NCBI GenBank assembly: GCA_013239625.1
Contig: MU053881.1
Coordinates: 15,244,373-15,308,372 of the forward strand
Direction: 5' to 3'
DNA: 64,000 nucleotides
Source: Lama guanicoe
Lineage: Eukaryota
The notes beneath the pieces were generated by a model, which did no database searches, had not been told where the DNA came from, and worked only from the letters and a program-made list of their open reading frames with translations. This document shows, piece by piece, positions 1,303 through 48,978 of the stretch. The position numbers and the translations under genes are program-made. How positions within the stretch are numbered: the first letter of the stretch is position 1; each line of letters opens with the position of its first letter.

Positions 1303-1946
1303 TCATACGCAGTGGCAGTCCTTGGCCACAAGGTCGTCGAAGGGCGTGAGTGACACGCTGCCCTCGCTGTCTCGGTGCATGAGCACCACCGGCTCGTAGC
1401 TTGCCGGCACGCAGCACGGCGCAGGTGCAGCATCAGGATTCAAGCCATGCAGGCGCGCCTGCATCTGCGCGTGCGTGTTAGCCGACCGGAAGTGTCCCGG
1501 ACAAGCGCCGATGCACATGCGCACGTCCAGCTCGCGCGGCGCCACCACCCAGTCCGCCCAGCCCAGGTCCTCGACCGAAGCGCGCAGGCTCTGCAGGCGG
1601 CAGCAGCGCCCCCGCCCGAGCGGGCAACCGTCCCGGGTGCTCGCATTCGCGTGGCGACGTCCCCTGGCGGCTCTTGACCGCCAGTGCAGCTCAAGCTGGG
1701 GCTGTGTAGAAGGCAACGCCTCCAGCAAGTGGTCCTCACGCGGCAGTAGTCGCAGGCGTATTACGGGAGCCCGGGAGCCTCCGAGGCTGAGCTGACGCTG
1801 TAGTGACCGTGTCACGTCCCACGAGTTCCTCGCCGTTGGGGACAGCCGGAGAAGGGCCCGATGCAGGCGGGAGGATGCGAGGAGCCCCTCAGTTAAGTCG
1901 ACCCGGGGGATGCGCAGGTGCAGGTGGCCACCTGGCCCAAGTCGCA
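1303..1946 (-). CDS. GDF15: GDF15 coding exon 2 (propeptide, RGRR furin site, 9-Cys TGF-beta mature domain)
   Basis: Acceptor tctctcccatag|TG joins exon 1 in frame (PK-LRLGPGGHLHLR). Mature domain CPLGRGRCC...LGWADWV...CIGAC...APCCVPASYEP...AKDCHCV*. 292+644=936 nt = 311 aa + stop. CpG-rich exon. Confidence 0.97.
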
Positions 1947-2755
1947 CTATGGGAGAGAGCGAAGAAAGCCAGTCACCCACTGGGCTACTGTGGGCCAGTC
2001 ACAGGGGTGCCCATTTCCTCCAACACCTCAAGCTGGATCCCACCTCAGGACCTTTGCACAAGCTACTTCCTCTACCACTCACTCTTTCCCCCTGAATCTC
2101 AGCATGGCTGGTTACATATCCCTCCATCCTGCCTAAAATAGACACGGCCCTATTTTCTTTGGTTGTCTATCATTTGTCTCCCCTACTAGAAGTTCAGCAG
2201 GAATTTATGTCTGCTTGGTCACCACTGTGCCTGGCACACAGTAGGTGCTCAGTAAATACTTGCAGAAATTATGTATATCAGCTCTGTAGGGAGACTGAGA
2301 TTTCAACACTGCCTCTGCCTCCTCCTGACAGTCAACATTTTTATCAAAGGCTAAGAGCCCAGGGCTGGGGATACAGCAACCAGCTACTGTGTTCAACTGT
2401 CTGGGTCTCAGTTTCTATATCTGAGAAATGAAGAGTACGCGGCTCCCCAGAATTCTCAGACCTCCAGGTTGGTACAGATGTTGGGAAGATTGGGGAGACT
2501 GAGGTTTGAGGGCTCTCGACCCAGTCAGTAGGCTTAGAGACGGCGAGAGGTTTACCTGGAGTCTCACAGCACAAGTGGCATTAGGGCAGGGTAAGAGCTC
2601 TTTCCTGTCCCCTCAACCCCTCCCAGTTTCTAGCGCAGCCCAGCTCTCCTTGCATCTTTTCTGCCACCCGGACCGTCGGTGAAGGGCGTGAAAATACTCC
2701 ACTCCCTTTCTAAGGCACCAGTAGTCACCTGATACTTCGGCAGTGTCTTGGCGCG

Positions 2756-2764
2756 ATTGCATCA
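2756..2764 (-). promoter_or_regulatory. Candidate C/EBP-ATF response element (CARE/AARE) in GDF15 intron
   Basis: Exact ATTGCATCA (TGATGCAAT on minus strand), the ATF4-C/EBP composite consensus. GDF15 is a known integrated-stress-response target. Function here is inferred. Confidence 0.55.
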
Positions 2765-3177
2765 GATTCGTAACCAGCCCAAGGAGGTTCTGCCCATCTC
2801 TATGAACGAATCTCTCCCCGCCTCCTTCCCCACTTCCGCCGGACCCCTGGATCCTCCCTCCTGGAATCCCCCAACTACCCTTCCCTTACTTCCAAGGGCA
2901 GAGACCACGCCCCCCGCCCGACCGTGTCTCCGGGTTCTCCAGGCTCTACAAGCCTGCAGTAGAACCGATGGATTCTCTGGGATTTAGTTTTCCCATCTGC
3001 GATCCCCGGAGGTGTTGTAACATCTCAGGTAGGCTGAGCCTCGTCTTGTCGCGATGCATACCTGGCCACTAGCTCCCCACCTCAGCCCCGAAGGGGGACA
3101 TTCTTGCCCGGTTCACAGATGGGGAAACTGAGGCTCGGGGGCAGACCTAGGCTTCTGTGTCTCAAAACCACTGGTTA

Positions 3178-3309
3178 TTGGGGGGGGGATATAGCTCAGT
3201 GGTACAGTGCATGCTTAGCATGCGTGAGGTCCTGGATTCAATCCCCAGTACCTCAATTATAATAAATAAAGAAAAAAAGAAAAATCTAATTACCAGCCCC
3301 CCCCCAATA
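3178..3309 (+). mobile_element. tRNA-derived SINE (Vic-1-like) in GDF15 intron
   Basis: A box TAGCTCAGTGG, B-box-like GGATTCAATCC, A-rich tail. 14-bp TSD AAAACCACTGGTTA at 3164-3177 and 3310-3323. Confidence 0.9.
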
Positions 3310-3368
3310 AAAACCACTGGTTAGATGATGGGAGCCGCTCAGGATGGGATCTGGGAAATTTCACTTAC

Positions 3369-3660
3369 GCTTTGGAGTGAGTATCTGGACTTGAGGGACG
3401 GTGATGAGGTCCGGGTTCCAGTCCTCCCAGGTCTGGTTCGCTCGAAGCCGGGTCAGGAAATTTTCGTAGCGTTTCCGCAACTCCCGGAATCTGGAGATAT
3501 CCGGACTGGAGTGCACGTCAGAGGGTCCCGGCAAGGCTGGGAGTTGATCCTGGGCCAGAAATAGGGCGCCTCCCGACGGTAGCCAGGAGAGCATCAGCAG
3601 CATCAGCAGCACCAGCAGCACCGGAGAGCGGTGCAGTGGTGTCTGTAGCTGCCCGGGCAT
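3369..3660 (-). CDS. GDF15: Growth/differentiation factor 15, coding exon 1 (signal peptide and start of propeptide)
   Basis: Translates MPGQLQTP...LLVLLMLLMLSWLPSGGAL...SRFRELRKRYENFLTRLRANQTWED...ILTPK. Start context is CAGCCATGC. Phase-1 donor AAGC|GTAAGT with the intron starting at 3368. 292 nt. Confidence 0.96.
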
Positions 3661-3714
3661 GGCTGTGCTAGTTAAGCTCTAAGCTGGGACTGACCGGACG
3701 CTGCTGGACTGCCC

Positions 3715-3745
3715 TTTATAATCCTCGGACTTTGTCCGCCCCCGC
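3715..3745 (-). promoter_or_regulatory. GDF15 core promoter: TATA box plus EGR1/Sp1 GC box
   Basis: TATAAA at 3715-3720 and GCGGGGGCG at 3737-3745 (minus strand), 55-85 nt upstream of the ATG. A forkhead-like TGTTTAC lies at ~3769-3775. Confidence 0.75.
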
Positions 3746-5634
3746 CTGCCTGGTCCCGTGGATGCAGAGTAAACACTCCAGGGACCACACTGGGCGAGGT
3801 CTTGGGCTGCTTTTCAGGGGGTGGCGCTTTTGATGGGGGGTGGGTGCTCCTAGGTATGCTGGGAAACGCCCCCGCCGCAGGAGCCTCTTTGAGCCTCACT
3901 ATCCTTTTCTGTGAAATGGGGACAGCATTCCAGCTTGGTGGGCTGATGGGAAGAATACTTTTCTCAAAAAAGATTTATTACTATGTGCTAAACACCATAG
4001 CAGAAGTTTAAGAGGTGACCTTCCCTGATTGGAGTCCCATCTCTCCCCTCTCAGCTCAGGATCAAAGGCTGAAGACAGTGAAAAACAAACCTAGAGGAAA
4101 AAAGAGCCTGAAAGAGTCAGGACATGCAACCTGGGGGCAAGTCATTCCTTTCCATCATACCTCTGTTTCTTCATCTGAAAAATAAAGACTGAGACTTTCA
4201 CAGGCAAGAAGGGCAAATGAGGCATAAAGGACAGGATCAGGCACATAGCAGGTGCTTGATCAACTGGGTATTTTTACAGTTACTCAGCCTCAACTGGGGG
4301 ACTCCTACCTATTCTTCAAAACCCTTCTCTAAAAGCCCCTTTTCTAGGAAGCCTTCTCTGACATTAGCTCTTCACCAGAGTGCTCCCAACCCCATCCTTT
4401 CCTCCAGCCCAGCCCTGACCCCACAGCACTGAGAGTGTGTGTGCTTGGCTCTGTCTGCCCCAGACTAGGGGCTTCTTGAGGCCTTGGGCAGGGATGAAGC
4501 TACTCTGGGCCCTAATCCCTTGGCTGCACCCAAAGAGGAGGTAGCAGGGACTTGGGATGCTGGGGCCTAGGGCAGGGAGGGCTGGTGTCAGGTCCAGCCA
4601 CCAGATGATGGAGAGGCAAGGGGTGCCCAAGGAACACCCTTCCCTCAGGGGCACCCAAACCTTGTTCCACTGCTCAGGACTCCTGGCCCCAAGCATCAAT
4701 CCCTGTGCCTGCCTCCAGCTTCCTGGCCTCAGAGAGGGTAGGCAACTATGCAAGGCAAACTGTAGGGGTATGTAAAGTCTGACAGGGGGTGCGCAGACAA
4801 GAAGTACAAGGACTTGCTGGGGGTTACACAGCCAGGCTCCCACTGGAAGAATGGGGTCCAAGCCTCTCCCACCTCCCAGTACACACCCCTCACTTGCTGT
4901 GTGAGCCGAGCCAAGCCTCCAGCACCCCCTGAGTTTCAGTCTGAGCCTCTGTGCTGTTGGATTGTCACCTAGCTATGGGAGGGGTCCAGAGGATCCCCCG
5001 GTGATGCTCTGGGCTTAGGAAACACAACTGGTCACGCTACCATCCTGATGGGTGCTCGCTGGGAGGCTGAGCCTCTTGCACCATCAGCTTGGCACCCACA
5101 GTAAGTGCTCAGTAGAGGCTGCAGGGCTGATGAGACCTAGGGCTGGGGCCCCGCTCCACAGCCACCCCACCACTCCCCCTACAGAGGCCGGGCCCCAGAG
5201 GCAAGCCAGATGCTGAATCAATACTAACATGGCCCGGGCAGGTCAGCAGAGGCCACTGATACCCAGGCCTGACTCGGGGTGAGTGGGGCAAACGTGGTAC
5301 TGTCTCAGGCGGCATCACTGCAAGATCAATAATGGTGAAAAGCCAACATTTGCTGGAGTCCAGGCATGGGCACTGCTCACACGCACTTCCATTAATGGGT
5401 AAAGGAATTAAGCCTCAGGGGGGCAAATATGTGTGTAGGGTCGTGGGAGGGCGACTCCACAATGGGGAACTTGCACATACCCAGCTTTCTACTGGGCCAT
5501 CTGTTTACCTGGCATTTCTAGGCTTGTGGTGGGATTCTGAATTTCCCTCCATCTGTGACTAGTTTTTCTCCAAATTTAAAAGCCTCATGAAGAATTTGCC
5601 CTGATTCATGTTTCAGCAGCCTGAACAGCTGTTG

Positions 5635-6820
5635 GCTCCAGAGAAGTCAGTGGGTTCACACTCCCGCCTCTCTTTTCCCTGGGACAAGGGGCTTCAACCC
5701 TCAGAGCCTCAGTTTCTCCATCTACAAAGAGTGGTATCAGCAGCCCCTTTCCTGACAGGGTCATGTGTGAATGGGAATTCCGCACACACTGGTGGGGATC
5801 AATATGATCACGATTCAAATCCCAGCACCCACCCCACCTTACTGTGTGACCATGGACAAGTTACTCAACCTCTCTGTGCATCAGAACAAAGAGCTATAAG
5901 GGAGAACACTCGGTGGGGAAATCCTCTTATCATTCTCATCCAGCGCACTCACAGCAGCCACCACCCACCAGGTCACCCACCAAGGACAGAACTACCAGTG
6001 ATTCGGAGCCCTCTCTGCCAGCCGATGACCCCAGGCTGAGGGGGACCCTGGTGGACACCAGCTTCTCACAAAGACACACAAGAAACCACATAGTTCAACT
6101 GTTTATTTGCTTTCTGAGGTGTCAAGTTTGGGGTCTCCCAGGGCCCAGACCCTAGCAAAGCCTGACAGACCCTTGCCCGGTCTGGGGTCCCAGACAGGGG
6201 GGTTTCAGACAAGGCACTCACAGGAGTCTCCCCGGGGGGTCAGGGAGAAGCCACCCCGAGGCTGCAGGGGCTGGACTCTCCTTTGGGGACAGGACACAGA
6301 GTCACCTTCAGCAGGAAGGGTTTTTCCAAGAGAGAGATTTGGGACAAGATACAAGCCTGAGCTGTTAAGGGAGTCCTGGAAACATGCCAGGTACCCTCTG
6401 GGCAGGCAGAAAGCCAACTCTGCTTCCCAAGGTCCAGATGGGGCCTCCTGCAGCATCCAGCCAGGACTTCGGAGCAGAGGGCACAATTTCAAAGCTACTT
6501 TCTCTGGGATTTTCCTCAGACAAAGTGTGTAGGACACAGAAGCCTGTGATGAGCTTGGGTGAGCCCGTCCCGGGCAGTGGGGGGCCAGGGCCACCTCCCA
6601 GAGCCTGAGGGTGCTTCTCTCTTTCCTGTCCCGTCCCCTTTCTCTGTGACCCATGTGTACCAGAGAGGCAGGCACTTCTGTGGATCTCTGGGCAGTTGAA
6701 GGGAAGGCCTGGGTGAGGAGAGGGAGGACGGGAAATGGATTTTAAGTAGGGGGAGCAGCTGGGGCTGGACTGGGGCCCCTCGAGGTCTGGAGCCCTGGAT
6801 ACTCAGCTTGTGACCACTGA
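5635..6820. repeat. Segmental duplicate, copy A (of 28787-29940), containing a copy of the PGPEP1 3' end
   Basis: Direct repeat. 5966-6440 matches 29157-29631 with one mismatch, and 6523-6705 matches 29643-29825 with one mismatch. Flanks are more diverged. Confidence 0.95.
6102..6107 (-). terminator. Duplicated poly(A) signal upstream of GDF15
   Basis: AATAAA and GU-rich downstream element identical to those at 29293. Confidence 0.55.
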
Positions 6821-6929
6821 GCCTCAGATTCCTCATCTGTTAAAGGTCTTGTAGGGGAGGACTCGTAAGGACCGGGTCTGTTAGATTGTGTGCTCTGCAC
6901 TCATTTGGAATTAAGTTTCAAGACATGGA

Positions 6930-7665
6930 CCTTGTGGAGAAAAGGAATCCTCCTATACTGTTGGTGGGAACGTAATTTGGTGCGGCCACCACGGAGAACA
7001 GTATGAGGCTTCCCTAAAAAGCTAGAAATAGAGTTACCATGTGATCTAGCAATCCCACCTCTGGGCATATATCCAGATAAAACTGTAACTCGGAAAGATG
7101 CATGCACCCCAATGTTCATAGCAGCACTATTTACAATAGCCAAGACATGGAAGCAACCTAAATGTCCATCCACAGGTGACTGGATAAAGAAGTCATGGTT
7201 TATTTATACAATGGAATACTTCTTGGCCATAAAAAGCAATGAAATAATGACATTTGCAGCAACATGGAGGGACCTGAAGATCATCCTAAGTGAAGAGAGA
7301 AAGACAAATGTCATATGATATCACTTACATGTGGAATCTAAAAAATGATACAAAATGAACTTATTTACAAACCAGAAATAGATTCACAGACAGAAGACAA
7401 ACAGTGGTTACCAAAGGGGAAAGAGATTGGGGGGAGGGATAAATTAGGAGTTTGGGATTAACATATACACACCACTATATATAAAGTAGAGAAGCAACAG
7501 GACCTACTGTATAGCACAGGGAACTATATTTCAATCTCTTGAAATAATCTATAATTGCAAAGAACCTGAAAAAGAATATATATATGTATAATGAAATCAT
7601 TTTGTGCTTTACCTGAAACTAACACAACATTGTAAATCAACTATAATTCAATGGAAAAAAAAAAA
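6930..7665 (+). mobile_element. 5'-truncated L1 (ORF2 C-terminus and 3'UTR) near the duplication junction
   Basis: MFIAALFTIAKTWKQPKCP motif and poly(A) tail. TSD AAGACATGGA at 6920-6929 and 7666-7675. Confidence 0.9.
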
Positions 7666-7859
7666 AAGACATGGATCTTAGCCAATGCCCCCCTCACCCT
7701 CAATGCTGCCATTCTGACCTGAGGGCCTTGAATCGGCCCAGACCTTCAATTGGCATAACTGCGGTCATACAAGGGGGTGTCAAGAACTCTGGACTGGGCA
7801 CCTGCTGCCCTCTCTGGCAGACCCTGTGTATCAGGGACCTGGACACGACCTCTGGGTCC

Positions 7860-10120
7860 AGTGAGTTGACCCCCAGCTGCGGCTGCAGGGACTATGAGAC
7901 TCCCAGCAGACTTGGTGTGACTGGGGACAGAGGAAGCAGGGCCTGGATTAAAGTGGGATTTCTCATCAGCAAGGGGCAGTCTAGGCCAGAGGTTCCCTGG
8001 GGGAGGGAGAGAGGAAGGCCAGTCAACCAGGACCTACTGTGTGCCGGGCTGGGGTTCCCCATTTCCTCCAACACCTCACGCTGGATCCCACCTCAGGACT
8101 TTTATACAAGCTGCTTCCACTACCAGCCTGAATCTCAGCATGGCTTGTTACACATCCCTCCAGTCTGCCTAAAGAAGGTACCACCTTCTTTTATTTGGTT
8201 GTCTATCATTTGTTCGCCTTGCTAGAATCTCAGCAGGTATTTCTGTCTGTTTGGTCGTCACTGTGCTCAGTAAATACTTGCAGGAATGAATGTATATCTG
8301 CTCTGTAGAGAGACCGGAATTCCAGTGCTGGCTCTGCCTCCTCCTTCTGGCCGTCAAAATCATTTTTACTGATGGTCTACTAAGTGCCCAAGGCTGGGGA
8401 TACAGCAACCAGCTTCTGTGTTTTCAACTCTCTGGGTCTTGGTTTCCATATCTGAGGGAGGAAGGGTACCAGACCACACAGGTCACCCAGTTTCCAGAAT
8501 CCATGGACCCCAAGGATCCCTAGGCCTCCCTCAGAGTGGTCCCGATCTTGGGGACAAGTGTAGGTTGGGGCATGGTTCTAGGACCCTCAACCTAGTTTCT
8601 AGGCTCAGAGAGGACAGGAGTTTACTTGGTGTCACACAGCACAGGTGGGATTAGGGAGGGATTAAAGTACTCTTCTGGGTCTGACACTTCCCCCACCTCA
8701 TCCCCCACACAAACTCCTCACAGATCCTTCTGCCCACTGGAACCTCCATGGAATGAAATGAGTTGAAAGGAAAACTCTGGAGGGCACCTGCTACTGGTGA
8801 CTTCAGCATGCTGGCCCATGATTGCTTCAAATCTGGAAGCAAACTGGGCAGGTTCTGCCAACCCACCTCTTCCCTCCCCTCAGCACGCATCCCTGGGTCC
8901 CAGTTCCTGGATTCCCTCCTCCCTTCAGTCAGGGGCAGGAATCACGCCCTCCTGGTGATTTTGTCTCTGAGTTCTTCAGGTGCTGCGCCTCTTCAGGAGA
9001 GTCGCTGTTCTCTCAGGTTCCCCATCTGCATTCTGGGGAGGGGTTGTAACAGTCCTACATTGGCTGAGCCCCACCCTGTCCTGACACAAATGAAGCCGCT
9101 AACCCCCCTATCAGTCCCAAGGAAGGAACGGGTGCTCCTGCTGGGTTCACAGACCAGAAACTGAGGCTTAGTGGCAGGTCTGGGTGTCTGATTTGGAACC
9201 ACGGGCCAGATACGGTGGCTGCCCAGGGAGTCTCTGTGCTTTCACTCACGCTTTAGGCTGAGGTCAGGGTTCCAGTCTTTGGACTTCTGGTTCACTCACA
9301 GCCTAGTCAGCAAGTCTTTGTAGCATTTCTGCAGCTCCCGGAATCTGGAGACATGAGGACCGGATTGCACCTCTGAGGGATCCTGGTCCACGGCCAGTGG
9401 CAGGGCGCACCCCAGCGGCATCAGAGAGGAGGTGGTGGCTAGCCCAGGCATGCCTATGCTAGGTTGTGATCTGAGCTGGGACTGACACCGCAGGACCTCC
9501 CTTTACAATCTAAACCTATCCACCCTGGCTTGCCCAGTATCTTCTGTCCATCCCTCCGTGCAGAATGAACACTCAAGACGTCAAAGCCAGGCCTGGTACC
9601 AGGGATGTGTTTCTGGGGAAGCTGAGGCACCACTCTGAGCCTTAGTATCTTCCTCCATAACGTGAGGACATCATCCCAGCCTGATGGGCTTGTGGAAAGA
9701 ATAATTTTGTCAAACCCCCGCACTCAAAACCCAAACTTATTAGTCTCCACTATGTGCTAAATTCTGTAACAAGGGCTTAAGAGATGGCCTTATTTCTTTT
9801 TAGGAGTCCCTCTCTCCCCTCTCAGCTTAGGATCAAAGGCTGAAGATAGTGAAAAACAAAGGAAACAGAGGAAAAAAGAGACTGAAAGCCAGAAAGAAGG
9901 TCCCAAATGAACTCTCCAAAAAAGGAAAAGAGAAGAGGAGAAAATCCCCTCCTGCCAGGTGAAGATGGGCTCTTGGGCTGGGGAGGAGGGAGCAGGAGGG
10001 GAGGGGGGGGTCTTCTCAGCTTAAAAAAAAGAGTGAAAAAAAAAGTGCAGCCTGGGGCAATTCGTTCCTCTCCATCACACCTCTATTTCTTCATCCGAAA
10101 AATAAAGACTGAGACTTCCA
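7860..10120 (-). pseudogene. Unprocessed partial GDF15 duplicate (promoter, exon 1 9451-9250, intron, 5' part of exon 2 from 7996)
   Basis: Collinear with ~1790-4200. Exon 1 translates MPGLATTSSL...PSEVQSGPHVSRFRELQKCYKDLLTRL*VNQKSKDWNPDLSLK with donor C|GTGAGT. The exon-2 remnant TLIQALLPLSPVTPSLLGVS*SLQPQL matches RLHRALLRLSPTARNSWDVTRSLQRQL. No mature domain seen. Confidence 0.9.
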
Positions 10121-10239
10121 CTGGGGAAGCCCCTCTAGCAGTCACTCCCCATTCTCCTCCCCCAGCCCTGGGCAACCGCTAATCTGCTTTCTGTCTCTGT
10201 GGATTTGCCTGTTCTGGACATTTCATATTAAACATTCTT

Positions 10240-10360
10240 GGGGAGGAAGATATCACTCAAGCGCATGCTTGGCATGCATGAGGTCCTGGGTTCAATCCCC
10301 AGTACCTCCTCTAAAAATAAATAAATAAATAAACCAAATACTCCTCACCTCCCCCCAAAA
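10240..10360 (+). mobile_element. tRNA-derived SINE (degenerate)
   Basis: GCATGCATGAGGTCCTGGGTTCAATCCCCAGTACC core and (TAAA)n tail. Confidence 0.8.
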
Positions 10361-10379
10361 AGAACATCCTTTCTCCACA

Positions 10380-11138
10380 CAATTCTCCAGCACCTGCCAA
10401 GTGCCCTATAATTCAATTCAATTATGGTACCATCTAACCAGAGAGAGCATCAGACCCCATGGCTTAAGGGCTCAGTCCCACAAGACTGTCCTCCACCACC
10501 ACCCTTCTTCAAATGCCAGTCACAGGTCCAGATTGTCACCTGGCCTTCCAACCCAATGGCTAAAATCAGAGGTTCCCAAGATCCCCTCCTTGGGTTTGAT
10601 TAATTTTCTAGAGCAAGTCATAGAACTCAAGAAACCTGTATATTCACTAGATAACAGGTTTATTACAAAGGATATTAAAGGATATGAATCCACAGCCATA
10701 GGGCAAGGTGGGTGGAAAGGACATGGAGTTTCCAAGCCCGCTCCGAGTGCACCACCCTCCCAGCACCTCCACATGTTCACTAACCTGGAAGCTCTCCAAA
10801 GCCCATCCTTTTGGGGTTTTATGGAGGCTTCATTACCTAGGCACAACTGATTAACTCATTGGCCGTTGGGACTGAACTCCATTTCTGGCCTCTCTTCCAT
10901 GCCCAGCGGTGATGAGGGAGGGGTGAGGCTGAAAGTTCCAACCCTCTAATCACGTGAGTCATTCTCCTAGCAACCAGCCCCCAACCTTGGGTTGTTCTCC
11001 AAAAGTCATCTCTATAACATAACAAAAGACATCTTTATCTCACTCTTTACAGGAAACCCCAAGGTTTTTGGGAGCCATGTGCCAGAAATGGGGTAGAAGA
11101 CCAAATATATATTTCTTATTATAAGTCACAGTATCACA
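10380..11138 (-). mobile_element. Solo LTR, MER21-like
   Basis: Reverse complement starts TGTGATACTGTGACTTATAATAAGAAATATAT...TTTCTGGCAC, a pattern shared with the elements at 22172 and 39219. Confidence 0.65.
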
Positions 11139-11601
11139 CATATAAATGGAATCACCCAACGGTGGCCTTTGGGATCTGACTTCTTTCACTCAACGTATTT
11201 TCAAGGTTCATCTATGTGGTAGCATGTGTCAGTGTTTCATTTTTTTTTATGGTTGAATAATATTCTGGTGTATGAAGACACCACACATTGGTCATCCATT
11301 CATCCACTGATGGTCATTTGGGTTATTTCTACCTTTTGAACTATTGCTAATACAGCTTTATTGAATAGTCATATACAAGGATTTGAGGATCTGTTTTCAA
11401 TTCTTGTAAGGCTATATCTAGAAGTGGAATTGCTGGGTCATATGGTCACTCTATGTTTAACTTCGAAGCACCACTAGAAGATTTTCCACAGCCTCTACCT
11501 TTTATATATATATATTTTTTTAATTGAAGTATAGTCAGTTTACAGTGTTGTGTCAAGCCTCTGCCTTTTTATTTTTAAACTTTTATCAAGATACGACTTA
11601 C

Positions 11602-12344
11602 CGTTTACAGATAATAAATGCTGGAGCAGGTATCAAGAAAAAGGAACCCTCCCACACTATTGGTGGGAATGTAAATTGGTGCATCCACTGTAGAAATTCC
11701 TTTAAAAACTAAAAATAGACTTACCATATGATCCAGCAATCCCACTCTTGGGTATATATCTGGAAAAGACAAAAACTCTAATTCGAAAAGATACACACAC
11801 CCCAGTGTTCATAGCAGCATAGTATATATATACTATTCAGCCATAAAAAAGAATGAAATAATGCCATTTGCAGCAACGTGGGTAGACCTAGAAATTATCA
11901 TATTAAGTGAAATAAGTCAGACAGAGAAAGACAAATATCCTATGATATCACTTATACGTGGAATCTAAAAAAATGGCATAAATTCTATTTACAAACCAAA
12001 AACAGGCTCACAGACATAGAAAACTATGTTTATCAAAGGAGAAAAGGTGGGGAAGGGGTAAATTAGGAGTTTGGGACTAACAGATATATATTAATATGTA
12101 TAAAATAGATAAACAACAAGGACCTACTGTAAAGCACAGGAAACTATATCCAATTTCTTGTAATAACATATAATAGAAAAGAATCTGAAAAGAAAAAATA
12201 TATATGTATGTATATGTATAACTGAATTGCTTTGCTGTATACTTGAAACTAACATTATAAACCAACTGTACATCAGTAAAAAATAAAATAAAATTACTTA
12301 TTTTTTTAAATAAAAAAATTTAAAAGATAAAGATATTTTAAAAA
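11602..12344 (+). mobile_element. L1 3' fragment
   Basis: L1 ORF2-end and 3'UTR motifs; near-TSD AAGATA(C/T)GACTTA on both sides. Confidence 0.8.
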
Positions 12345-13789
12345 AAGATATGACTTATCAAAAGCAAAAAGGGCTAATCTTAAGTGTTCAGTTCAACAAT
12401 ATTTCACATAACTACTTCCTGAATGGGATTCTAGGACATTTCGGGCCCCATCCCTCTCCCTACCTCTGGATAACAGCTGTGCCCACCTCTGTTACCCGTT
12501 TTCCAACTTGCTATACACAGAACCAGCCAGAGCACCCTCTTTTCTATCTGGTGACTTTCACCCAATACACTGTCTGTGAATCACTGCATTCTTCACCTGT
12601 CATGTGTTTCGTTCTTTATCATTGCTGTATAGTATGCCACTGTGCATGTCTGGGAGTGAATACGCTGACTCATGAGTGGGTGTTTGTCACTTTATGAGCG
12701 GGACCAGGAATTAGTTCATTTTATTCCTCGACCTTCTCAAGGGGACACAGCCCGTGGGTGATCCCTGGGGACATGAAGGGGGTCATTAATTCCATGGCGA
12801 TTTCCACTTCACCAAACTCTGGAATGCTGGCAGCCAGGCTGATCTGGCTAACCCCTTTACGGCATCTTTAGCCGATGACCTCATGGCCAGTCCCACAGCC
12901 AGGGTAGGAGGAGGGGTACGGCAGGCAGCAGGCAGCCAGCCAGCAATGAGCTCAGTGGGCCGGGACCCTGCGTTTCTCACCTGGCAGCTTCCACGAGTCC
13001 CAGAGGCCGAGTGAGGGCAGAGGTAAACAGAGCACAGAAGCCAAGGGTCAAGCTGTTCCCTTCACTTGGCTTGGCCCCAAACCTCCCAGAATTTTCCCTC
13101 ACCATCTACTGTTAGCTATAGTCACCTTCATCAAACACACATACTGCACAAGAAAACACACAAACCCACTTCTTTCTGTTGTTTGTTTCTCGTGACGCAA
13201 GGCAAACATGGTCATGTCAGGAGATCCAGAAGGGATGAGAAAGCAGATTATTTAAAAATCTATGAGTTCATGGACTAGGAGAACTGCTAGCCTATCGCTG
13301 TGTATGCCCATTTAGGTCAGCACGTGACTGTGTCATCCAGGATGTCCCCAGCCAGCCTGGGTTCAAATCCTGGCTTAGTCCTTGAGATGCCAGGCAGAGT
13401 TGGGAAACATTTCTAATCTCTCCAAACCTCAGTTTCTCAGCATTACCCCATTATATGGCAGTTCTGAGTAAATGAGATGTACTTGGGGCTACAATCCCAA
13501 TATTTTAGAACTAATAACTATTATTATTATGAGTTGTTGGCCAATAATGTCTCAGCTTCAGTCAGAGTTGGGTTCATACAGGCCTGGGCAAACTGGCTTG
13601 GAAACTACAGCCTCCATTGGCAAACTCTTATTTATCACTTAAACCCAGGCTTTGATGTCCCATCTTCCAATCAGCCTTCCTTGGTCTCTCCCCAGGTTCC
13701 TTCAGGCTGAGGTGCCTCCCTCTGGCCCCATCCTGACCACACAGGGCTGGAGTGTCTGAGTCCGGATCTATGTCCCATCAGACCAGGGC

Positions 13790-14110
13790 CCAGAAGTTTG
13801 AAATTAAGGATCAGCAGGGCTCTGCTCCTCCAAAGGCTCTAAGGGAGGAAACTGCTCCTCCAGCTTCTGGTGGCCCCAGATGTTCCTTGGCTTGTGGGTC
13901 CCTCACTTCAGTCTCTGCCTCTGATTTCCCATGGCCTTCTCCTCTTCTCTGTCTATCTCCCCTCTTCTCTAAGGATATCTGTCATTATATTTAGGGCCCA
14001 TTGTAAAACCAGAATAATCTCATGGATTATTGCTCTTCCAAGACCATTAACTTCATTACATCTGCAAAGACCCTTGTTCCAAATAAGGTCACATTCACAG
14101 GGACTGAGGG
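13790..14110 (-). mobile_element. MaLR (MLT1-like) LTR
   Basis: AGAAGTTTGAAATTAAG...CCAAATAAGGTCACATTCAC MLT1-type motifs. Confidence 0.6.
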
Positions 14111-14278
14111 ATAAGTATCAGATTGTCAAGGTGGGTGTGGTCCAGAGAAGTGCCCTGAAACTCCTTAAGAGACACCACAGCAGTGGATGTGTGGTGATGG
14201 CATGGGGAGAAACCTAAATCTGCAGCAGAGTGTAGAGCAAAGTAATAAGTACCAAGGGAAAATGTTTTGAGCACCTAC

Positions 14279-14828
14279 TGTTACTGAAATGAACTTGGAT
14301 CTGTTCATCCACGTGCTGCTAAGTCACTCTACTGACACCGGGTTGTGGTGAAGGAAAGTACAGCATTTACTGCAGGGCACCCAGCAAGGCAGTGGGAGAC
14401 CAGCCTCAGATCCACTCCACCTTGGTCCTGGAGTGAGGAGTTTTTTAAAAGGGAAGAGCAAAGAGACTGGAATTAATCGTTGTTTTGTGACATTGCTGTG
14501 ACATTTCTTAATCGTAGTTTCAGGTATCGAGATGTCTATGGTTTATGAGTCTCTGGCCAGGTGTTCCATGGCTCCAGGGCTCTATTAGCTCATCTTACCT
14601 TGGAGAAACAACCTGGATTTTTACCTTAGAGAAGTTATCTACAACAGCAATTTTGGTACATTAACGATGTTATCTACATCAGCAATTTTAGGCATCTGAC
14701 TCTGGTTGATGAGTGTTCAGTGAGCACAAGATTGAGGTCAGAGAGGACAAGAGAGAGAATAAAGTTTTGGAGAGACGGATTGATCATAAACTTGGTAAGG
14801 AAGCGCAGTTTTGGGGAGCTTGGTTTCA
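14279..14828 (-). mobile_element. ERV1-type solo LTR
   Basis: TG...CA termini and 4-bp TSD CTAC (14275-14278 and 14829-14832). Confidence 0.75.
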
Positions 14829-15059
14829 CTACTATGTGTCTGGCATGAAAGACACCATTCTTATAAGATCTGATGAGGTGAGATGGTTATTTTCATTTCA
14901 CAGGTAACAAACTGAGGCCAGAGAGGTGGATGTGCCAAGTCCAGAAGCCAGTGAGGCTGGACTTGGAGCCCTAGGCAGCCAGCTCCCCAGCCTGCATGGT
15001 CTCCCTCAGAGCCTCTAAAACAAGAGGATATGGCTGCCCTCAGGGGTGAGCATGTGCTG

Positions 15060-15630
15060 TGTAGGTGGGGCCGGGGGCTGGGGAGGGAGGGGCACGGAGG
15101 AAGAAGAATTCTCCCTCTACCCTTCTGAGTCCTTGGCTGAGATCCCCTGTAATAAAAGACAGACTAGCAAGAGAAAAACAAGCGAAAGTTTAACATCTAT
15201 ACTTTGTGTGTATATGGGAATGGGAGATATGGAAGGAAACTGAATAAAACTTCCCAAGGTGGCCCAAGCCACTACCTTCAACAACATCTTCAGCTAAAGA
15301 CAAAAGAAGGATATTGGGGAAGAGTGTTGAGGCCAGTTATAGAAAGTGATCAGGAAAAACCAGTAAACAAGGGTAAGATCTGTTACACAAATTTTAATTT
15401 GTGTCTTCTCCATTGATAAGATACTCCAGGGATTTAGAACCAACCTTCTCTTCTTGGTACAGAGAGGGAGACATACTTCAAATGGAAATTTCCTTTATAC
15501 ATAGAAATGTCCCTTACAAAAGGGTAACTTCTGCAACATTTTCAGAGTTTCCCTTATATCTGCAGTTTCTCAAAATCATCCTTATGCCACAGAGTTATGT
15601 TCTGGAGTGGCATCTACTGCCACCCGTCAG
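15060..15630. mobile_element. Probable LTR remnant
   Basis: Resembles ERV1 LTR-type sequence; boundaries uncertain. Confidence 0.4.
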
Positions 15631-16339
15631 ATGGGACTGATACACTTACAATGTCGGGCGTACGATGGGCTTGCAATACCTGGGCATTGTGGGAAGAACC
15701 CAGGCTCAGGGAAGGGAGATCAGGGATCGAATCCCGATCCTGCCATTCCCTGGCTATGTGACCTTGGGCAGGTGGCTTGGCCTCGTTGTGCTAGGTACCT
15801 CCTTTGATGTTCTGAGTCCTGGACAGGCCACAGCTGTGAGGATCAACAGGTCTTTTTCCTTGTGCTCACATGAGAGGTGCTTTACAGGAATCCATCTATT
15901 CATGTCTTCATTCATTCATTCATTCCACAAATATTTCTTTAACATTTATTATGTGCCAGGCTTCCTTTCAAGTGACAAAAGAGGTTTCTAGGCATGGGAG
16001 GAGTAGAGGGAAGGGTGATCCTGGCAGGGGAACACAGCATGTTCAAAGGCCCTGAGGTCAGACAGGCAACTCCAGACCACAGCCTGGCAAAGGAACTTGA
16101 AATCGGACCCAAGCCCATGAGGTCAGTCACAGCAGACAGGCCTGGTTCAAATCCCACTTTGGCTTCTCCTTGGCTCCATGACCTGGGCAAGCAAGCATTT
16201 CACATCCCAGAATCTTCTCCTTGTCAAAGGTCATTTTCCTCACCTGAAAAGGTCTCTTTACAGCTCTTCAGGATCAAGAATAAGGTTAAAAAAAAAATCT
16301 ATGATCATGTAAATGTACCCCCCCGAAGTGCCCACCTCA

Positions 16340-16456
16340 GGGGAAGGTATAGCTCAGTGGTAGATCACGTGCTTAGCATGCACGAAATCCTGGGTTTAAT
16401 CCCCAGTACCTCCATTAAAATAGATAAATAAATAAAAACCTAATTACTTCCTCCTT
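16340..16456 (+). mobile_element. tRNA-derived SINE
   Basis: GGTATAGCTCAGTGGTAG...CCTGGGTTTAATCCCCAGTACC. Confidence 0.85.
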
Positions 16457-16753
16457 AAAATAATTTTTTTTAATTGCCCAACTGATGGCTGGGTTACTTC
16501 TTGAGCAAAGTCAGTTTTATTTTACTTTATTTTATTATTAAAACAATGTTTTTATCATGGTAAAATACACATAACATAAAATGTATCATTTTAACCATTT
16601 AAAAATGTACAGTTTAGTGGCATTTAGTACATTCTCAGTGTGGCATAATCATCACCACTATTTCCAGAACTTTTCTATCACCCCAAAAGGATACCATGTT
16701 CCCAATTAGCGGAGACTCCCCACTCCTTCCCCTACCCTACCCTTTGCAGCCAC

Positions 16754-17382
16754 TGAAACCGTGCCCCAGAGAGTTAACAGGAATCCTTGCATTTCTCTTG
16801 CAGAGCAACGGATAGGGGAACAGCTTGTTACAACCCCTTCAACTGCCTTCACGGATTAAGTTCACTTTAGTTATTTTTTTCTTTCTTTCTTTCTTTCTGC
16901 CTCTCTTTAACTGCATACCTTCCCAGCGTCACATAGCCCAGTTGTTTTATAGGAAACCTGGAGTCAGCTCTTGTCCACCGAGAGCCAGCTAAGGCTGACT
17001 GGGACCACTGACCCTAAAACGGAGCCTGTACAGGTGTTGGATAAATGGCCTTTTGACGTCAGCGGGCCAGAAAAATCCACCCTCAGATCGCATTAAGGGC
17101 CTCCATTTTTGAATATGCAGAAGCATGTAACCCAGATATGCCTGTGAAGAACACTGATTATCTTACCTTTTGCTTATTTCCAGTCACCTTTCCCCACGCC
17201 CAGGACCACCTGCTTATTCCATAAACATCCCACCCCCCTCATCTTCGGGGAGATGGATCTGAGACTTGTTCTCCCGTCTCCTCGCTTGGCTGCCTTGTGA
17301 ATAAATTCTTTCTCTGCTGCAAACCTCAGCACTCAGCATTTGGCTTGCTGTGTGTTGGGCAGATGGACTTGGTTCAGTAACA
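16754..17382 (+). mobile_element. ERV1-type solo LTR
   Basis: TGAAACC...CAGTAACA termini, internal AATAAA at 17300. Same terminal motifs as the inverted LTR at 14279-14828. Confidence 0.7.
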
Positions 17383-17773
17383 CTGGCATCAATATGCACG
17401 TACAAGTTTTTGTTTGAACACCTGTTTTCAGCTTTTTTGGGTATAAACCAAGGAGTGGAATTGTGGGGTCATGTGGTCATTTTGTTTAACTTGTTGGGAA
17501 ATCACCAAACCTTCTCCTGTCAGTTTGATTTTTCATCATAAAATATTCCAGGCAGACCCCGAAGTATCAATAATAAAATAACAAATACCCAGGTACCCAG
17601 CACCCTGCTAAAGAAAGAAATATTCCCAAGGGAGGTGAAGCCCTCGTCCACCTCTACCATCCATCATTCATCAAGCCCTTGTCTAAAATTTGGATTTGAT
17701 CATCCCCATGCCCGTTTATATATATACATATATATAGATGTGTATTTATATTTATATATTTAGGTGATTGGTG

Positions 17774-18365
17774 TGATACAGGACAAAGAGGGGGGTGCAG
17801 GAGGATGGCCGTGTCCCAGGTCTCATTCGAGTCCCTGGGATGCATCACGCCAAGTAAGGGTCCTTGTCTTCACACAGGGAAGAATTCAAGAGTGAGCCAT
17901 AGTTGAGTAAAAGTAGATTTATTTAGATAAATATACACTGCTGGGGTGGAGGCAGGGGGTTAAAGTAAAGGTAAATACACACTCCATAGACAGAGTGTGG
18001 GCTGTCTCAGAAGGCAAGAGAGAGGGACCCCGAGGTAAGGTGTTGCTAGTTTTTATATGCTAACAAGTGAGAGGATTATTCCAACTACTTTTGGGAAGGG
18101 GGCGGGGGTTCCCAGGAACTGGGCCACTGCTCTCTCTTTGACCTTTCATAGTTAGCCTCAGAACTGTCTTGTCTCTTGTGGGTGTGTCATTCACCATGCT
18201 TGGACATTACAATGTGTATAATGAAGCTCAAGGTCCACTGGAGGTTGACTCTCCCGCCATCTTGAGCCTCCAGGTCTATTGAGAATTGACTTTTCCACCA
18301 TCTTGGTGCTAATTGCTCTGTCATTCCTTTAATGGCTGTGCCTTTCCCCCTTTCTTTCTGTCTCA
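17774..18365 (-). mobile_element. ERV1-type solo LTR
   Basis: TG...CA termini, 4-bp TSD GGTG, minus-strand AATAAA near 17918. Confidence 0.7.
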
Positions 18366-21038
18366 GGTGTATTTAAAACTTTATTGGCAAAATGGTGCAA
18401 CAGGTAGCTCCAACCTCTCCTTCCCCGACAGTAACATCAAACAAAAACCATCAAAATCAACTTTGTTAGAACTCAGAAAAATGGTCAGAAGTTTGCAGCA
18501 ACTAAGCAAATGTTGAAACAAGAAAAAGGCAACCTGAGATGGTAGGAAAGCTTTGTGGCATTTCTACTTGCCCTTGCCCCGTCCGCTCTCCAGCTCAGCA
18601 GTGGTCTTGTAGCAGAAGTAACCCATGTTCCCACTGCAGGACCCCAGTACCTGGTTCTGGGGGGAGCAGAGCAGATCTTATTCACAAATTACTGTGTAAG
18701 TCTGTTCTAACCTGTCTGGAGGCTTCTCAAAGGACTGACAGGGCTGCTCACCTCTGAACTGCCTAACTTGGAGCTTAGGCTGGAAAAGTGCTCAAAAATT
18801 GCTCAAAAAAACTTCAAACTGAACCAACCCCATACAGACACCTAGGGCAAAAGTTTATGGTCAAAACATATCACAAACATTAAACCCTGGGAGGAAAAGC
18901 TGGGGGAGATCCTTTGAGAAATTAGGACATGCAAAAGCATCTGTGTATATGGAGGGAATTTAGAAATCCATGTGCCCACTCAGGGGCAAGACTTATGCTC
19001 AGAAAAAACCTGAGAAGACCAAGCTTTCACCTCAGGCTGATCCCTAGACTCAGGACAAGTCTGGCCAAATGCTGGAGGAGTATTCCAGTGCAGAACCAGT
19101 CTACAGAGACCGGGAGATGCAGACTTTTTGTTTGTTTGGTTAGCTTAGTTTTTTGGTTTTTCTTTTTAAGTTCCTAGAATTAAAGGAAATCTCTGTTAAG
19201 ACATTAGCTGAACATGAGCTAAAGGAGGAGAGGCTTCAGCAACCATTCGTGAAGGGGAATACAGTCTTTGCAAAAAATAGTTTGGAAAAGTACCTAAACA
19301 TAAGATATACTACAGCTTTCGATGATTCAAAAATAAAAATAAAACACCAAACCCTCAGGAAAGGGTAGAACCAAATTTCCAGAGTTACCATATTATAATA
19401 TTCAAATGCCTAGTTTTCAACAACAACAAAAAAACATAAGGCATAAAAACATGAAAGTACAGGCCATTAAAAAGAACAGAATTAATTGACAGAAATCATC
19501 TTTTAGAAAGCCCAGACATCAGACTTACCAGACAAACACTTTAAAATAACTGTCTTAAACATGCTGAAAGAGCTAAGGGAAAATATGAAAAAAAAGAACT
19601 AAAGGAAATCAGGAAAACAAAATGTATGAACAAAATGAGATTATCAATAAAAAGATACAAATTAGGAAAAGAAATCAAACAGAAATTCTGCATCTGAAAA
19701 GTACAATAACTGAAATGAAAAACTCACTAGGGGGCTCAAGAGAAGACTTGAGCCACAGAAGAAAGAATCAGCAGATCCGAAGACAGGACAATTGAGATTA
19801 TCAAACCTGAAGAGCAGAAAGCAAAAAGAATGAAGAAAAGTGAACTGAAAGGAAAGATATCCCATGCTCTTGGACTGGAAGAATTAATATTGTTGAATGT
19901 CCATTGACAGATGACTGGATAAAGAAGCTGTGGTATACTTATTCAACAGAATACTACTCAGCCATAAAAAAGAATAAAATAATGCCATTTGCAGCAACAT
20001 GGATGGACCTAGAGAATGTCATTTTAAGTGAAGTAAGCCAAAAAGAGAAAGAAAAATACCATATGATATCACTTATATGTGCAACCTAAAAAAAAAAAAA
20101 AAAGAAGACACAAACTTACAAAACAGAAACAGACTCACAGACATAGAAAACAAACAAGGTTACCAGGCGAAAGGGGGTACAAAGGGATAAATTGGGAGTT
20201 CGAGATTTGCAGATATACAGTACCATACATAAAACAGATAAGCAACAAGTTTATACTGTATAGCACAGGGGACTACATCCAATAGCTTGTAATAACGTAT
20301 AAGGGAACAGAATATGACAAGATATACACATAGAAGATATATATGTATAACTGAATCACTATGCTGTACACCAGAAACTAATACAACACTGTAAATCAAC
20401 TATACTTCAATTAAAAAAAAATGAAGGTGAAATCAAGACATTCTCAGATGAGCAAAAGTTGATGGAGGTGATTTTTTGTTTTTTTTTTAACCGTTGTATC
20501 TGTCCTGCAAGAAATGCTAAAGGGAGTCTGGTAGGTTGAAATGAAGGAACGCTAGGCAGTAAACTCAGAGCCATATCTAAGGACTGAAGGGAGAAGTAAC
20601 TAGTTCTACAATAACAGTTGGAGACTTCAATATCCTACTTTAATAACGGATAGAACGTCTAGACAGAAGAGTAACAATATGCAGGATTGAACAATACTGT
20701 AAACCAACTAGATCAAACAGACATCTACAGAACACTTCTTCAACAAGAGCAAAAAACACATTCTTATCAAATGTACATGAGACATGCTCCAGTATAGATC
20801 ATATGTCAGAAAAGAAGCAATTTTCAATAAATTTTAGAAGGCTGAAATCATCTCCAGTTACAAAGGAATGATGCTAGAAATCAATAATAGAAGGAAAACT
20901 GGAATGATCACAAATATGCAGATATTAAATGACATTCTCTTAAAGAAACAATGGATCAAAGAAGAAATCATGAAAGAAATTGGAAAATGCTTAAGGATGA
21001 ATGAAAACAAAACCACAACATACTAAAAGTAATGGGAT

Positions 21039-21165
21039 GGGGAGAGGGTATAGCTCAGTGGTAGAGAACATGCTCCTGGGTTCTGGGTTCAATTCCCGGT
21101 ACCTCTATTTAAAAAAAAAACAACCTAATAATAAATAAATAAATAGATCTAATGACCTTCCCCAG
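21039..21165 (+). mobile_element. tRNA-derived SINE nested in L1
   Basis: A and B boxes present; flanked by the repeated TAAAAGTAATGGGATG (TSD-like). Confidence 0.85.
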
Positions 21166-21629
21166 CCAAATTAAAAGTAATGGGATGCAGCAAAGGCTCA
21201 TAAGGAAATTGACAACTTTAAATGGCTACATTGAAAAAGAAAAAAAATCTCCAATCATTAACCTAACTTTACACTTTGAGGAAGTAGGAAAAGAAGAGTA
21301 AACTAAAATCAATGCTAGCAGAAGGAAGGAAATCATAAAGATTAGAGCAGAGATCAATAAAATACAGAATAAAGAAATAACAGAATCATTGGAATTAATG
21401 AAACCAAAAGTTGCTTCTTTGAAAAGATCAACAAAAATCAACAAACTTTTAGCTAGGTTGACAAAGAAAAAAGAAATGCAAATAACTCAAATCAGAAATA
21501 AAAATTGGGCATAACTACTGATTTCATAAAAATAAAGGAGATAATAAGAAACAACATGGTCTTACTGTATAGCACTGGGAACTATATTCAGTAGGCTGTA
21601 ATACCTATAGTGAAAAAGAACATGAAAAA

Positions 21630-21631
<2 letters not shown>

Positions 21632-21670
<39 letters not shown>
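21632..21670. repeat. (TA)n microsatellite
   Basis: Directly visible. Confidence 0.9.
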
Positions 21671-21673
<3 letters not shown>

Positions 21674-22171
21674 GAATAACTATGCTGTACACCAGAAAAT
21701 GAACACAGCATTGTAAATCAAATATATATATATATATATATAACTGAATCACTATGCTGTACACCAGAAACTGAACACAGCATTGTAAATCAACTATACT
21801 TTGTTGGGAAAAAAAACAATAAGGATACTATGAAAAATTGCATGTTCAGAAATTAGATAACCTAGATGAAATGGACAAATTCCTAGAAACATACAAATTA
21901 CCTAAACTGACTCAAGAAGAAATAGAAAATCCTTACAGACCTATAACAGACGAAGAAATGGAATCAATAATCAAAAACCTTCCAACAAAAGAGAAGTCCA
22001 AGACCAAATGGCTTCACTAGTGAATCCTACCAATCATTTGATGGATAGTGAGTGCCAATTCTTATCTAATTCTTCCAAAAAATAGAAGGGGACACAACAG
22101 TTCTAACAAGGCCAGAATTACCCTGATAATAATGACAGATACACATGTCACGAGAAAAGAATATTACACAC

Positions 22172-23095
22172 TGTGAGATAATAGTATATATATATAAGTC
22201 TCTGCCCTCAATTCCTGGCACAGAACTCTTGAAACCCTTGTAACTTCCCAAGTGGTAAGAGCACTAGGACATCTTTTGTTCTAACATTTGCTCTTTGACC
22301 CTGGTTCCCAACACAAAGTTCCTCAGTCCTCTGGAATTTCCTGGGTGATAGGAGTGTCTTTTGTTGTAATGAGGTGACTCTGGCTGGGCTTGTAGTAGAT
22401 GGTTCCTGGATGAGGGACTGGTCACCAGGAGATCCAAGCCATGATTAGAAGCTTGGAATTTTCAGCCATATCTCCCATTGTCCAGAGAGGCAAGATGGCC
22501 TGGAAATGGAGTTAATGATTGATCATACCTACAGGATGAAGCCTCCATAAAAATCCCAAAGTGCGGGATTCAGAGAGCTTCCAGATTGGTGAACACATGG
22601 AGGTGCTGGGAGAAGGGCAGAGGAGCTCTGTGCCCCTTCCCACACACCTTGCCGTACGCATCTCTTTCAACTGGATGCTCCTCTATATCCTTATCCTATC
22701 TTTTTATAATAAGCAGGTAAACACGGAGTAAACTGTTGCCCTGCGTTCTATGAGCTGCTCTAACAAATTAATTCAACCCGAACAGCGGGTTGCGGGAAGC
22801 CCCGATTTATAACTGATTAGTCAGAAGCACAGGTGACAATCTGGACTTGAGATTGGCATCTCAACTGGGGGCAGTCTTGTGAGACTAAGACCTTAACCTG
22901 TGGCTCTGATGCTATCTCCAGGTAGAGTATCAGAACTGAGTTAAATTGTCAGACACTCAGCTGGTGTCATAGAGAATCGTTTGTTGAGATGGAAAAACAC
23001 GGAAGTGCTTTTCTGTGTCAGAGGTGTTGTGAGTGTGGTAGTGCCGTGAGAGTAAAGGAAAAACCCAAAAAGAGGACTGAGATTTTTCCTAAAAC
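22172..23095 (+). mobile_element. Solo LTR, MER21-like, inside L1 ORF2
   Basis: TGTGAGATAATAG...TTCCTGGCACAGAACTC and CAGAAGCACAGGTGACAA motifs shared with 39219-40025. Confidence 0.7.
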
Positions 23096-48945: not shown

Positions 48946-48978
48946 TGTCTATCTGCCAAGGGATCACTATCTAGAATG

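Follow-up and report, generated by a model that had tools for sequence, protein, structure and literature searches.

A probable unprocessed GDF15 pseudogene, one end of a tandem duplication, upstream of intact GDF15 in Lama guanicoe

The stretch of Lama guanicoe DNA that we analyzed (64,000 nucleotides, hereafter the window) carries an intact GDF15 gene and, about 5.8 kb upstream of it, a second copy of the first part of that gene. This copy is very probably a partial unprocessed GDF15 pseudogene that arose by tandem duplication and that is dead and without function today. It has a functional homologue within the same genome and bears disabling lesions. It keeps the intron as well as about 670 nt of homology upstream, and the poly-A tail and target-site duplication found nearby belong to an L1 element. 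A preliminary description, made from the sequence alone, had called the copy an unprocessed GDF15 paralogue that is dead or repurposed. Given that the copy contains an intron and cannot make GDF15, the description holds and the word "dead" is well supported. Beyond it, our analysis points to a tandem duplication that extends past the copy and is accompanied by gene conversion, to the sharing of the copy with Camelus through the protein model EPY79933.1, and to a candidate p53 site over the copy's start codon.

Results

Intact GDF15 and PGPEP1

Intact GDF15 lies on the reverse strand at 1303-3660, with exon 1 at 3660-3369, exon 2 at 1946-1303 and an AATAAA at 1056, and it encodes a protein of 311 amino acids. 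This protein matches the Pfam TGF_beta family with an E value of 5e-26, and its best match in the PDB is GDF15 (E = 4e-49). It differs from alpaca GDF15 (XP_006199118.1) at 2 of 311 residues and from dromedary GDF15 by 12 differences and a three-residue indel. The signal peptide includes an imperfect CTG repeat at 3590-3620 of the window. This stretch is three residues longer in Camelus than in the window and in alpaca, and it exceeds that of whales, ruminants and pig.

The upstream neighbor is PGPEP1. Its last coding exon, at 33763-33954 on the reverse strand, was identified by translation and by Peptidase_C15 clusters of the Atlas (0.90-0.91), and a further exon at 58820-58885 matches pyroglutamyl peptidase-1 with an E value of 0.02. 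The PGPEP1 exons in the window gave no Pfam match. The 98 N of the window fall at about 61000-61130, in the GC-rich region of PGPEP1 exon 1. Human GDF15 is also flanked by PGPEP1 (PMC7299427).

The upstream copy and its lesions

The copy spans 10124-7860 on the reverse strand and, by self-BLAST and alignment, is collinear with the promoter, exon 1, intron and start of exon 2 of intact GDF15. The alignment to the GDF15 region on which the preliminary description depended is significant within the 64-kb window: BLASTN pairs 1920-3157 with 7969-9190 (E = 3e-131) and 3405-4114 with 9259-9888 (E = 6e-41). The copy's promoter and exon 1 align to those of GDF15 with scores of 315.5 and 155, compared to maxima of 48 and 53.5 in 200 shuffles. 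The exon-2 remnant is weak when taken alone (45.5, with a shuffle maximum of 40.5), and GDF15 exon 2 is its top match among 842 windows scored.

The promoter and 5' UTR of the copy (9452-10124, reverse strand) were delimited by BLASTN, alignment and motif scan. In BLASTN, 4125-4204 matches 10046-10124 at 87.5% and 3884-4114 matches 9630-9888 at 70.8%. The TATA box, which is TATAAA in intact GDF15 and is conserved as TATAAA in human, rat and mouse GDF15 (PMC7299427), reads TGTAAA at 9507-9502 in the copy. Likewise, both GCGGGGGCG boxes of GDF15 (at 3875 and 3745) are missing from the copy in a motif scan, which amounts to a loss of GC/EGR1 boxes; in human GDF15, Sp/EGR1 sites drive basal and induced transcription (PMC7299427). 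Both the TATA mutation and the loss of the GCGGGGGCG box had been recognized in the preliminary description.

Exon 1 of the copy (9250-9451, reverse strand, by alignment) begins with an ATG at 9451-9449 and measures 202 nt, 90 nt less than the 292 nt of GDF15 exon 1. Its gaps relative to GDF15 are of about 48, 15 and 27 nt, which sum to 90, and because of these lengths the copy's donor (AGC/GTGAGT at 9250/9249) is still in phase 1, the same phase as in GDF15. A TGA at 9298-9296 aligns with a CGA codon of GDF15 and closes the frame after 51 codons (open reading frame 9451-9299). The nonsense change also gives rise to an additional GTGAGT donor (9299-9294), which precedes the stop by one codon. 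The signal core is deleted: as judged by hydropathy only, the best 11-residue value is 1.8 in the copy versus 3.5 in GDF15. The start codon, the donor, the acceptor, the CGA-to-TGA change and the deletion of a leucine-rich signal core thus all agree with what had been noticed at the outset. The absence of the copy from a program-made list of open reading frames, which had also been pointed out, is true but trivial because the copy's open reading frame encodes only 51 amino acids.

The intron (7997-9249, reverse strand, by alignment) is 1253 nt long with GT-AG ends intact, and its acceptor, CCCCCAG, ends at 7997. It is 82% identical to the GDF15 intron in its 3' part and 60% identical in the middle. 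The exon-2 remnant (7860-7996, reverse strand) has a one-base frameshift, a deletion of about 36 nt and a TAG at 7894-7892. The one-base insertion lies just past the acceptor and shifts the spliced frame, so that the TAG, which had been described as a stop in the homologous exon-2 frame, does stand in the frame homologous to GDF15 but would never be read in a spliced message.

Homology to GDF15 peters out near 7860, ahead of the RXXR site. When a cystine knot (PF00019) was sought in 4300-12000 by local alignment, no trace of it was seen (score 33.5, compared to a maximum of 36 in 30 shuffles), and tblastn of the 311-residue GDF15 protein recovered just two segments in the copy, residues 25-85 (E = 3e-13) and residues 119-179 (E = 1.7), in keeping with the earlier remark that the domain is missing. 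The copy therefore lacks the cystine-knot domain, the signal peptide and the RXXR site by which a TGF-beta ligand is recognized. Neither the copy's exon-1 reading frame nor the spliced exon-2 frame gave a Pfam match, and the new donor spliced to the copy's own acceptor leads to a stop after five codons (frame 1). All five Rfam matches in 7680-10200 fall far below the gathering score.

A tandem duplication from PGPEP1 to GDF15

The DNA on either side of the copy is also duplicated. Block A (5603-6824, reverse strand, with an AATAAA at 6107) is a duplicate of block B (28757-29945, reverse strand, with an AATAAA at 29298), which lies 4-5 kb downstream of the PGPEP1 stop codon. A spacer relic at 13608-13788 (reverse strand) matches 4285-4470 at 61% (BLASTN of spacer against spacer, E = 2e-7), and a junction relic at 7690-7750 (reverse strand) matches 30090-30020, directly upstream of block B. 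Along the minus strand the order is PGPEP1, block B, spacer relic 13788-13608, copy, junction, block A, spacer relic 4470-4285 and GDF15. Judged by this order of matches, the copy forms one end of an extended tandem duplication whose start lies just downstream of PGPEP1, and the alignments suggest that the duplication junction lies between about 7860 and 7750. The relic at 7750-7690 scores 37 at 30090-30020, the highest of 842 windows scored (mean 18.4, sd 3.2) with a runner-up of 35, and with the L1 excised the score of the junction is reached by 1 of 300 shuffles. The piece beyond the L1 (6924-6826) is less distinctive: its score against the DNA upstream of block B is reached by 35 of 300 shuffles and is not among the top matches. 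With the joined junction as the query, the site upstream of block B ranked second (37 versus 39).

The L1 itself (6930-7680, forward strand) is 5'-truncated, with a poly-A tail, a target-site duplication and multi-copy matches that include 48715-48953, downstream of RVT_1 frames. Since its 14-nt flanks are near-identical, it must have been inserted after the duplication and have removed nothing. We considered the L1 as the destroyer of the cystine knot and rejected it, given that the target-site duplication marks a clean insertion and that the flanks are unlike GDF15 exon 2. Among other repeats of the window, three related ones at 10376-11124, 22536-22983 and 39243-39944 share 67-69% identity and presumably are LTR-type elements; one of them lies 250 bp upstream of the copy's promoter. 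A 72-bp tandem duplication (94%) at 21650-21798 ends an L1-like fragment.

This arrangement would follow from an unequal crossover between a site about 4 kb past the stop codon of PGPEP1 and one near the start of GDF15 exon 2. Such a crossover would have doubled the interval, yielding an upstream copy that ends before the furin site and the cystine knot and a downstream gene that is complete, which is the arrangement present in the window. The L1 would have been inserted near the junction at a later time. Because the 7750-7690 relic matches DNA that adjoins the upstream end of block B and the L1 deleted nothing, we favor a copy that was born truncated, and the data suggest that the duplication probably never included the cystine knot, as opposed to a later loss of it. 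Less favored is the alternative that the whole of GDF15 was duplicated and that a deletion came afterwards, although the junction relic is the best match only narrowly (37 versus 35).

The spacer measures 1.1 kb in the GDF15 unit (4470-5603) versus about 15 kb in the copy's unit (13788-28757). Given a human PGPEP1-GDF15 gap of about 16 kb, this contrast suggests that the unit of the intact gene may have lost most of its spacer, such that the ancestral distal upstream DNA would now lie beyond the copy; the other option is heavy insertion upstream of the copy.

Gene conversion, decay and authenticity

Identity between blocks A and B changes along their length, from 88 to 98, 99, 89 and 72%. A segment of about 700 bp (5966-6740 and 29157-29860), broken near its midpoint by a 70-bp indel, is 98-99% identical inside a duplicate that is otherwise 72-88% identical. 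This core resembles a tract of recent gene conversion within an old duplicate, and mis-assembly could also account for it there. Block A's part of the tract includes a duplicate of what is probably the PGPEP1 poly-A signal, and this duplicate lies 2.4 kb upstream of where GDF15 translation starts.

K2P distances between the copy and GDF15 are 0.38 in the promoter, 0.32 in exon 1 and 0.72 in the exon-2 remnant, and 0.46, 0.60 and 0.21 in the 5', middle and 3' parts of the intron, respectively; paralogue distances span 0.19-0.72 overall. The heterogeneity within the intron (range 0.29), to which misalignment could contribute, exceeds the permutation maximum of 0.19 and was equaled in 0 of 2000 permutations. 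The observed/expected ratio of CpG is 0.29 in exon 1 of the copy versus 0.69 in GDF15, and 0.09 versus 0.81 in the exon-2 part. Of 80 aligned sites at which at least one of the two sequences has CG, 28 show decay to TG or CA in the copy and 8 in GDF15. The copy, never able to make the hormone, would have become methylated and would then have decayed through CpG loss, loss of the TATA and GC boxes, deletion of the signal core, the stop and the frameshift, all of which are lesions visible today. Gene conversion would have re-homogenized patches of both units, as the pattern of identity suggests.

Despite a divergence of 30-40%, the copy's ATG and both splice sites are intact, and pairwise dN/dS is 0.37 over 40 codons (10 synonymous and 16 non-synonymous differences). 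Given this ratio, the persistence of the ATG and splice sites, and exon-1 deletions that sum to 90 nt, a past spell of coding constraint on the copy is possible.

It is scarcely credible that the copy is an assembly artefact in the form of a false duplication. Mis-assembly could give the 99% identical core of blocks A and B, but that block alone, whereas the copy is only about 70% identical to GDF15. Of 24 listed sequencing runs, 16 contain 0.91-0.93 of the stretch's sampled words, and these runs, whose type is only guessed as DNA or unknown, come from seven studies (six if one of them is the source), from which we take the copy to be real DNA. In addition, the same 51 residues are encoded in an independent camel assembly. 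Four runs guessed as RNA contain 0.08-0.18 of the words, which has no bearing on expression either way.

A camel counterpart and the age of the copy

The search with the 51-residue reading frame yielded one protein among 30 candidates, EPY79933.1 of Camelus ferus, which is 100% identical over the 51 residues. Apart from this camel model, no relatives were found (0 matches among 1.84 billion representatives and no candidate of 28-90 amino acids), nor did the 51 residues give a Pfam match or a usable Atlas match. EPY79933.1 is annotated as "GDF15-like". Its first 51 residues are those of the copy, and it is an automatic chimera with GDF15 in which the copy is not marked as a pseudogene. When 9451-9300 of the window is joined to 3490 onward, the product equals EPY79933.1 over 277 residues with 10 differences, 0 of 51 in the part derived from the copy and 10 of 226 in the part derived from GDF15. 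Since EPY79933.1 uses the GT made by the nonsense base, the copy predates the Camelini-Lamini split of about 16.3 Mya (PMC6726744), as very probably does its stop. Two submitter models for GDF15 of camels are thus malformed, namely EPY79933.1, which is a chimera with the copy and has a frameshifted end, and KAB1259604.1, which skips most of the propeptide.

Camel and alpaca differ by 2.5% in the casein cluster, an AT-rich locus (4,720 substitutions in 188,847 bp; PMC6726744), a value far below the paralogue distances of 0.19-0.72 between the copy and GDF15. At this neutral divergence, the simulated chance of 0 changes in 51 residues is 0.03 with a CpG boost and 0.06-0.08 without it; at GDF15's own rate (10 of 226) it is about 0.13 by hand calculation. 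Read as a signal of constraint, the 51/51 identity with camel would be borderline, and it was noticed post hoc.

For a phylogenetic placement, we aligned 32 mammalian GDF15 proteins with 86 residues of the copy (84 columns; LG+G4), leaving out copy residues that aligned poorly (12 in exon 1, 16 in exon 2). In the tree, the copy groups with the GDF15 proteins of camelids with a support of 97/99, on a long branch (0.76). It shares four of six camelid-diagnostic columns, with the ancestral state at one and a private state at one. In AU tests, p is 0.35 for an origin on the camelid stem, 0.22 for an origin older than Cetartiodactyla, and 0.0096 for a copy that is sister to the second GDF15 copy of afrotherians. 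From these placements we favor a duplication, or a last conversion of the copy's exons, that would fall on the camelid stem, well before the camel-alpaca split.

It is rather unlikely, but deserves weight, that the duplication is far older (Laurasiatheria or earlier, and common to other orders) and that a conversion on the camelid stem made the exons look camelid. Distances of 0.35-0.60 in the promoter, mid-intron and block flanks are what an old duplicate would show, as are the marked heterogeneity along the intron and the conversion visible in blocks A and B, and the AU test tolerates an origin older than Cetartiodactyla. However, camelid-diagnostic residues occur in both exons of the copy, including its most diverged part, and the AU test rejects a grouping with the second copy of afrotherians. 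Moreover, no second GDF15-like protein was seen for pig, ruminants, whales, horse, carnivores or bats in the best 120 of 131 matches, a search of proteins that pseudogenes would escape. Such an older duplication bears on age alone and is compatible with a dead copy. The residues Q, K and V that the copy shares with the afrotherian second copy were considered as a sign of kinship and, on direct reading, rejected as CpG-type parallel changes.

A candidate p53 site and the question of reuse

A predicted p53 response element at 9436-9465 (no strand assigned) spans the copy's ATG. At 9455-9436 it consists of two RRRCWWGYYY half-sites with 1 mismatch in 20 positions and both CWWG cores intact, and a weaker third half-site extends it to 9465. 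It is the only p53 site with at most one mismatch in the 64 kb, and 24 of 100 shuffles contain such a site. The functional p53 site 2 of human GDF15 lies at the same position (PMC6696488, PMC1888811, PMC7299427). In intact camelid GDF15, the counterpart of the human proximal p53 site (3645-3664) has its second core broken, and no p53 site with two or fewer mismatches was found near the intact GDF15 promoter. Residues 4-5 are Q-R or Q-L in 10 of 10 cetartiodactyl GDF15 proteins aligned, and therefore the second p53 core is broken in those genes too. It follows that the copy would have regained the site via its deletion, possibly by chance. Control of GDF15 by p53 may differ in cetartiodactyls.

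That the first exon of the copy has been recycled in camelids, either as a p53-responsive enhancer or as an alternative first exon of GDF15, and has been kept unchanged between camel and alpaca, is improbable on what the sequences offer. As an enhancer, the dead gene would have supplied a co-opted cis-element, in which the deletion after the ATG rebuilt a p53 site that acts on GDF15 while the loss of the TATA and GC boxes prevents promoter competition. This is quite improbable. The site is the sole one of its quality in the window and sits where the functional human site does, the paralogous site in the intact gene is broken with no substitute near the promoter, and the camel residues M-P-G-L-A fit its retention. 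Yet about a quarter of shuffles yield a comparable site somewhere in the window, the first half-site is merely inherited, the candidate was found post hoc, and whales, ruminants and pig do without the core in their intact genes.

Use of the copy's exon 1 as an alternative first exon of GDF15, or as the start of a two-exon transcript, is very unlikely. In one predicted variant, the new GTGAGT donor is spliced to a cryptic AG in GDF15 exon 1, giving a signal-poor pro-GDF15 that is kept inside the cell; in the other, the 9250-7996 splice gives a message for a 51-residue micropeptide that ends at the AATAAA at 7204 or 6107. The joined sequence does reproduce EPY79933.1 with all 10 differences in the GDF15 part, and 0 changes in 51 codons would be uncommon at neutral divergence. 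The copy's stop also sits 46 nt before the exon junction, below the threshold for nonsense-mediated decay, which is a stop 50-55 nt before the junction. However, EPY79933.1 is a single-member cluster with a frameshifted C-terminus, which we read as the kind of fault that automatic annotation of draft genomes typically produces, whereas the RefSeq GDF15 proteins of alpaca, dromedary and wild camel all have the ordinary start. Furthermore, the cryptic acceptor in GDF15 exon 1 has a poor pyrimidine tract, the conserved 51 residues are unremarkable against GDF15's own rate, and promoter elements have been lost from the copy. A dead pseudogene remains our preferred reading.

Discussion

The copy shares with GDF15 (MIC-1/NAG-1; XP_006199118.1, XP_010993433.1 of dromedary and XP_006186304.2 of wild camel) the promoter layout, the two exons, the phase-1 intron and the N-terminal propeptide sequence. 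It differs from GDF15 in having no hydrophobic signal core, RXXR site, cystine knot, TATA box or GC boxes, and in its stop after 51 codons. CYP21A1P and GBAP1 are tandemly duplicated pseudogenes with gene conversion, and the chimeric beta-globin genes of Laurasiatheria reportedly offer a comparable case of tandem duplication with gene conversion. CYP2D7 and CYP2D8, beside CYP2D6, are a further example (PMC3276122). Like the GDF15 copy, all of these contain introns, lie next to their parent, and show patchy identity and inactivating lesions. In contrast to them, the GDF15 copy is a 5' fragment, is far more diverged (about 70%), and has its recent conversion tract in flanking DNA.

A dead fragment of this kind is of limited importance, but it can mislead gene prediction, as in the chimeric EPY79933.1, as well as the design of primers or guides for the camelid GDF15 locus. 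Should the p53 site or the new donor be in use, the inactivating mutations themselves would be the source of a regulatory element for the parent, a stress and appetite hormone.

In the literature searched, we found no GDF15 duplicate of camelids or other mammals, and none in afrotherians; supplements (e.g., of PMC7952090) and the RefSeq and Ensembl tracks may record one. The evolution section of a GDF15 review cites no GDF15 duplicate (PMC7299427). A metagenome scan with the GDF15 alignment gave one locus among 144 candidate stretches, at 27% identity, which is irrelevant here.

Afrotherians also have a GDF15 pair that arose by local duplication, with neighboring accessions in elephant (XP_049731801.1/XP_049731802.1) and Elephantulus (XP_006886040.1/XP_006886042.1). 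Unlike the camelid copy, both members of this pair are full-length proteins, and the camelid copy does not fall in a clade with the "B" proteins of elephant, manatee, sengi and aardvark, as the AU test above indicates. As placed by these protein comparisons, the afrotherian pair and the camelid copy are separate events. GDF15 would thus have been duplicated locally at least two times in mammals, with a duplicate that survived in afrotherians and one that died in camelids. A 609-residue member of the manatee GDF15 cluster may represent two copies fused by prediction.
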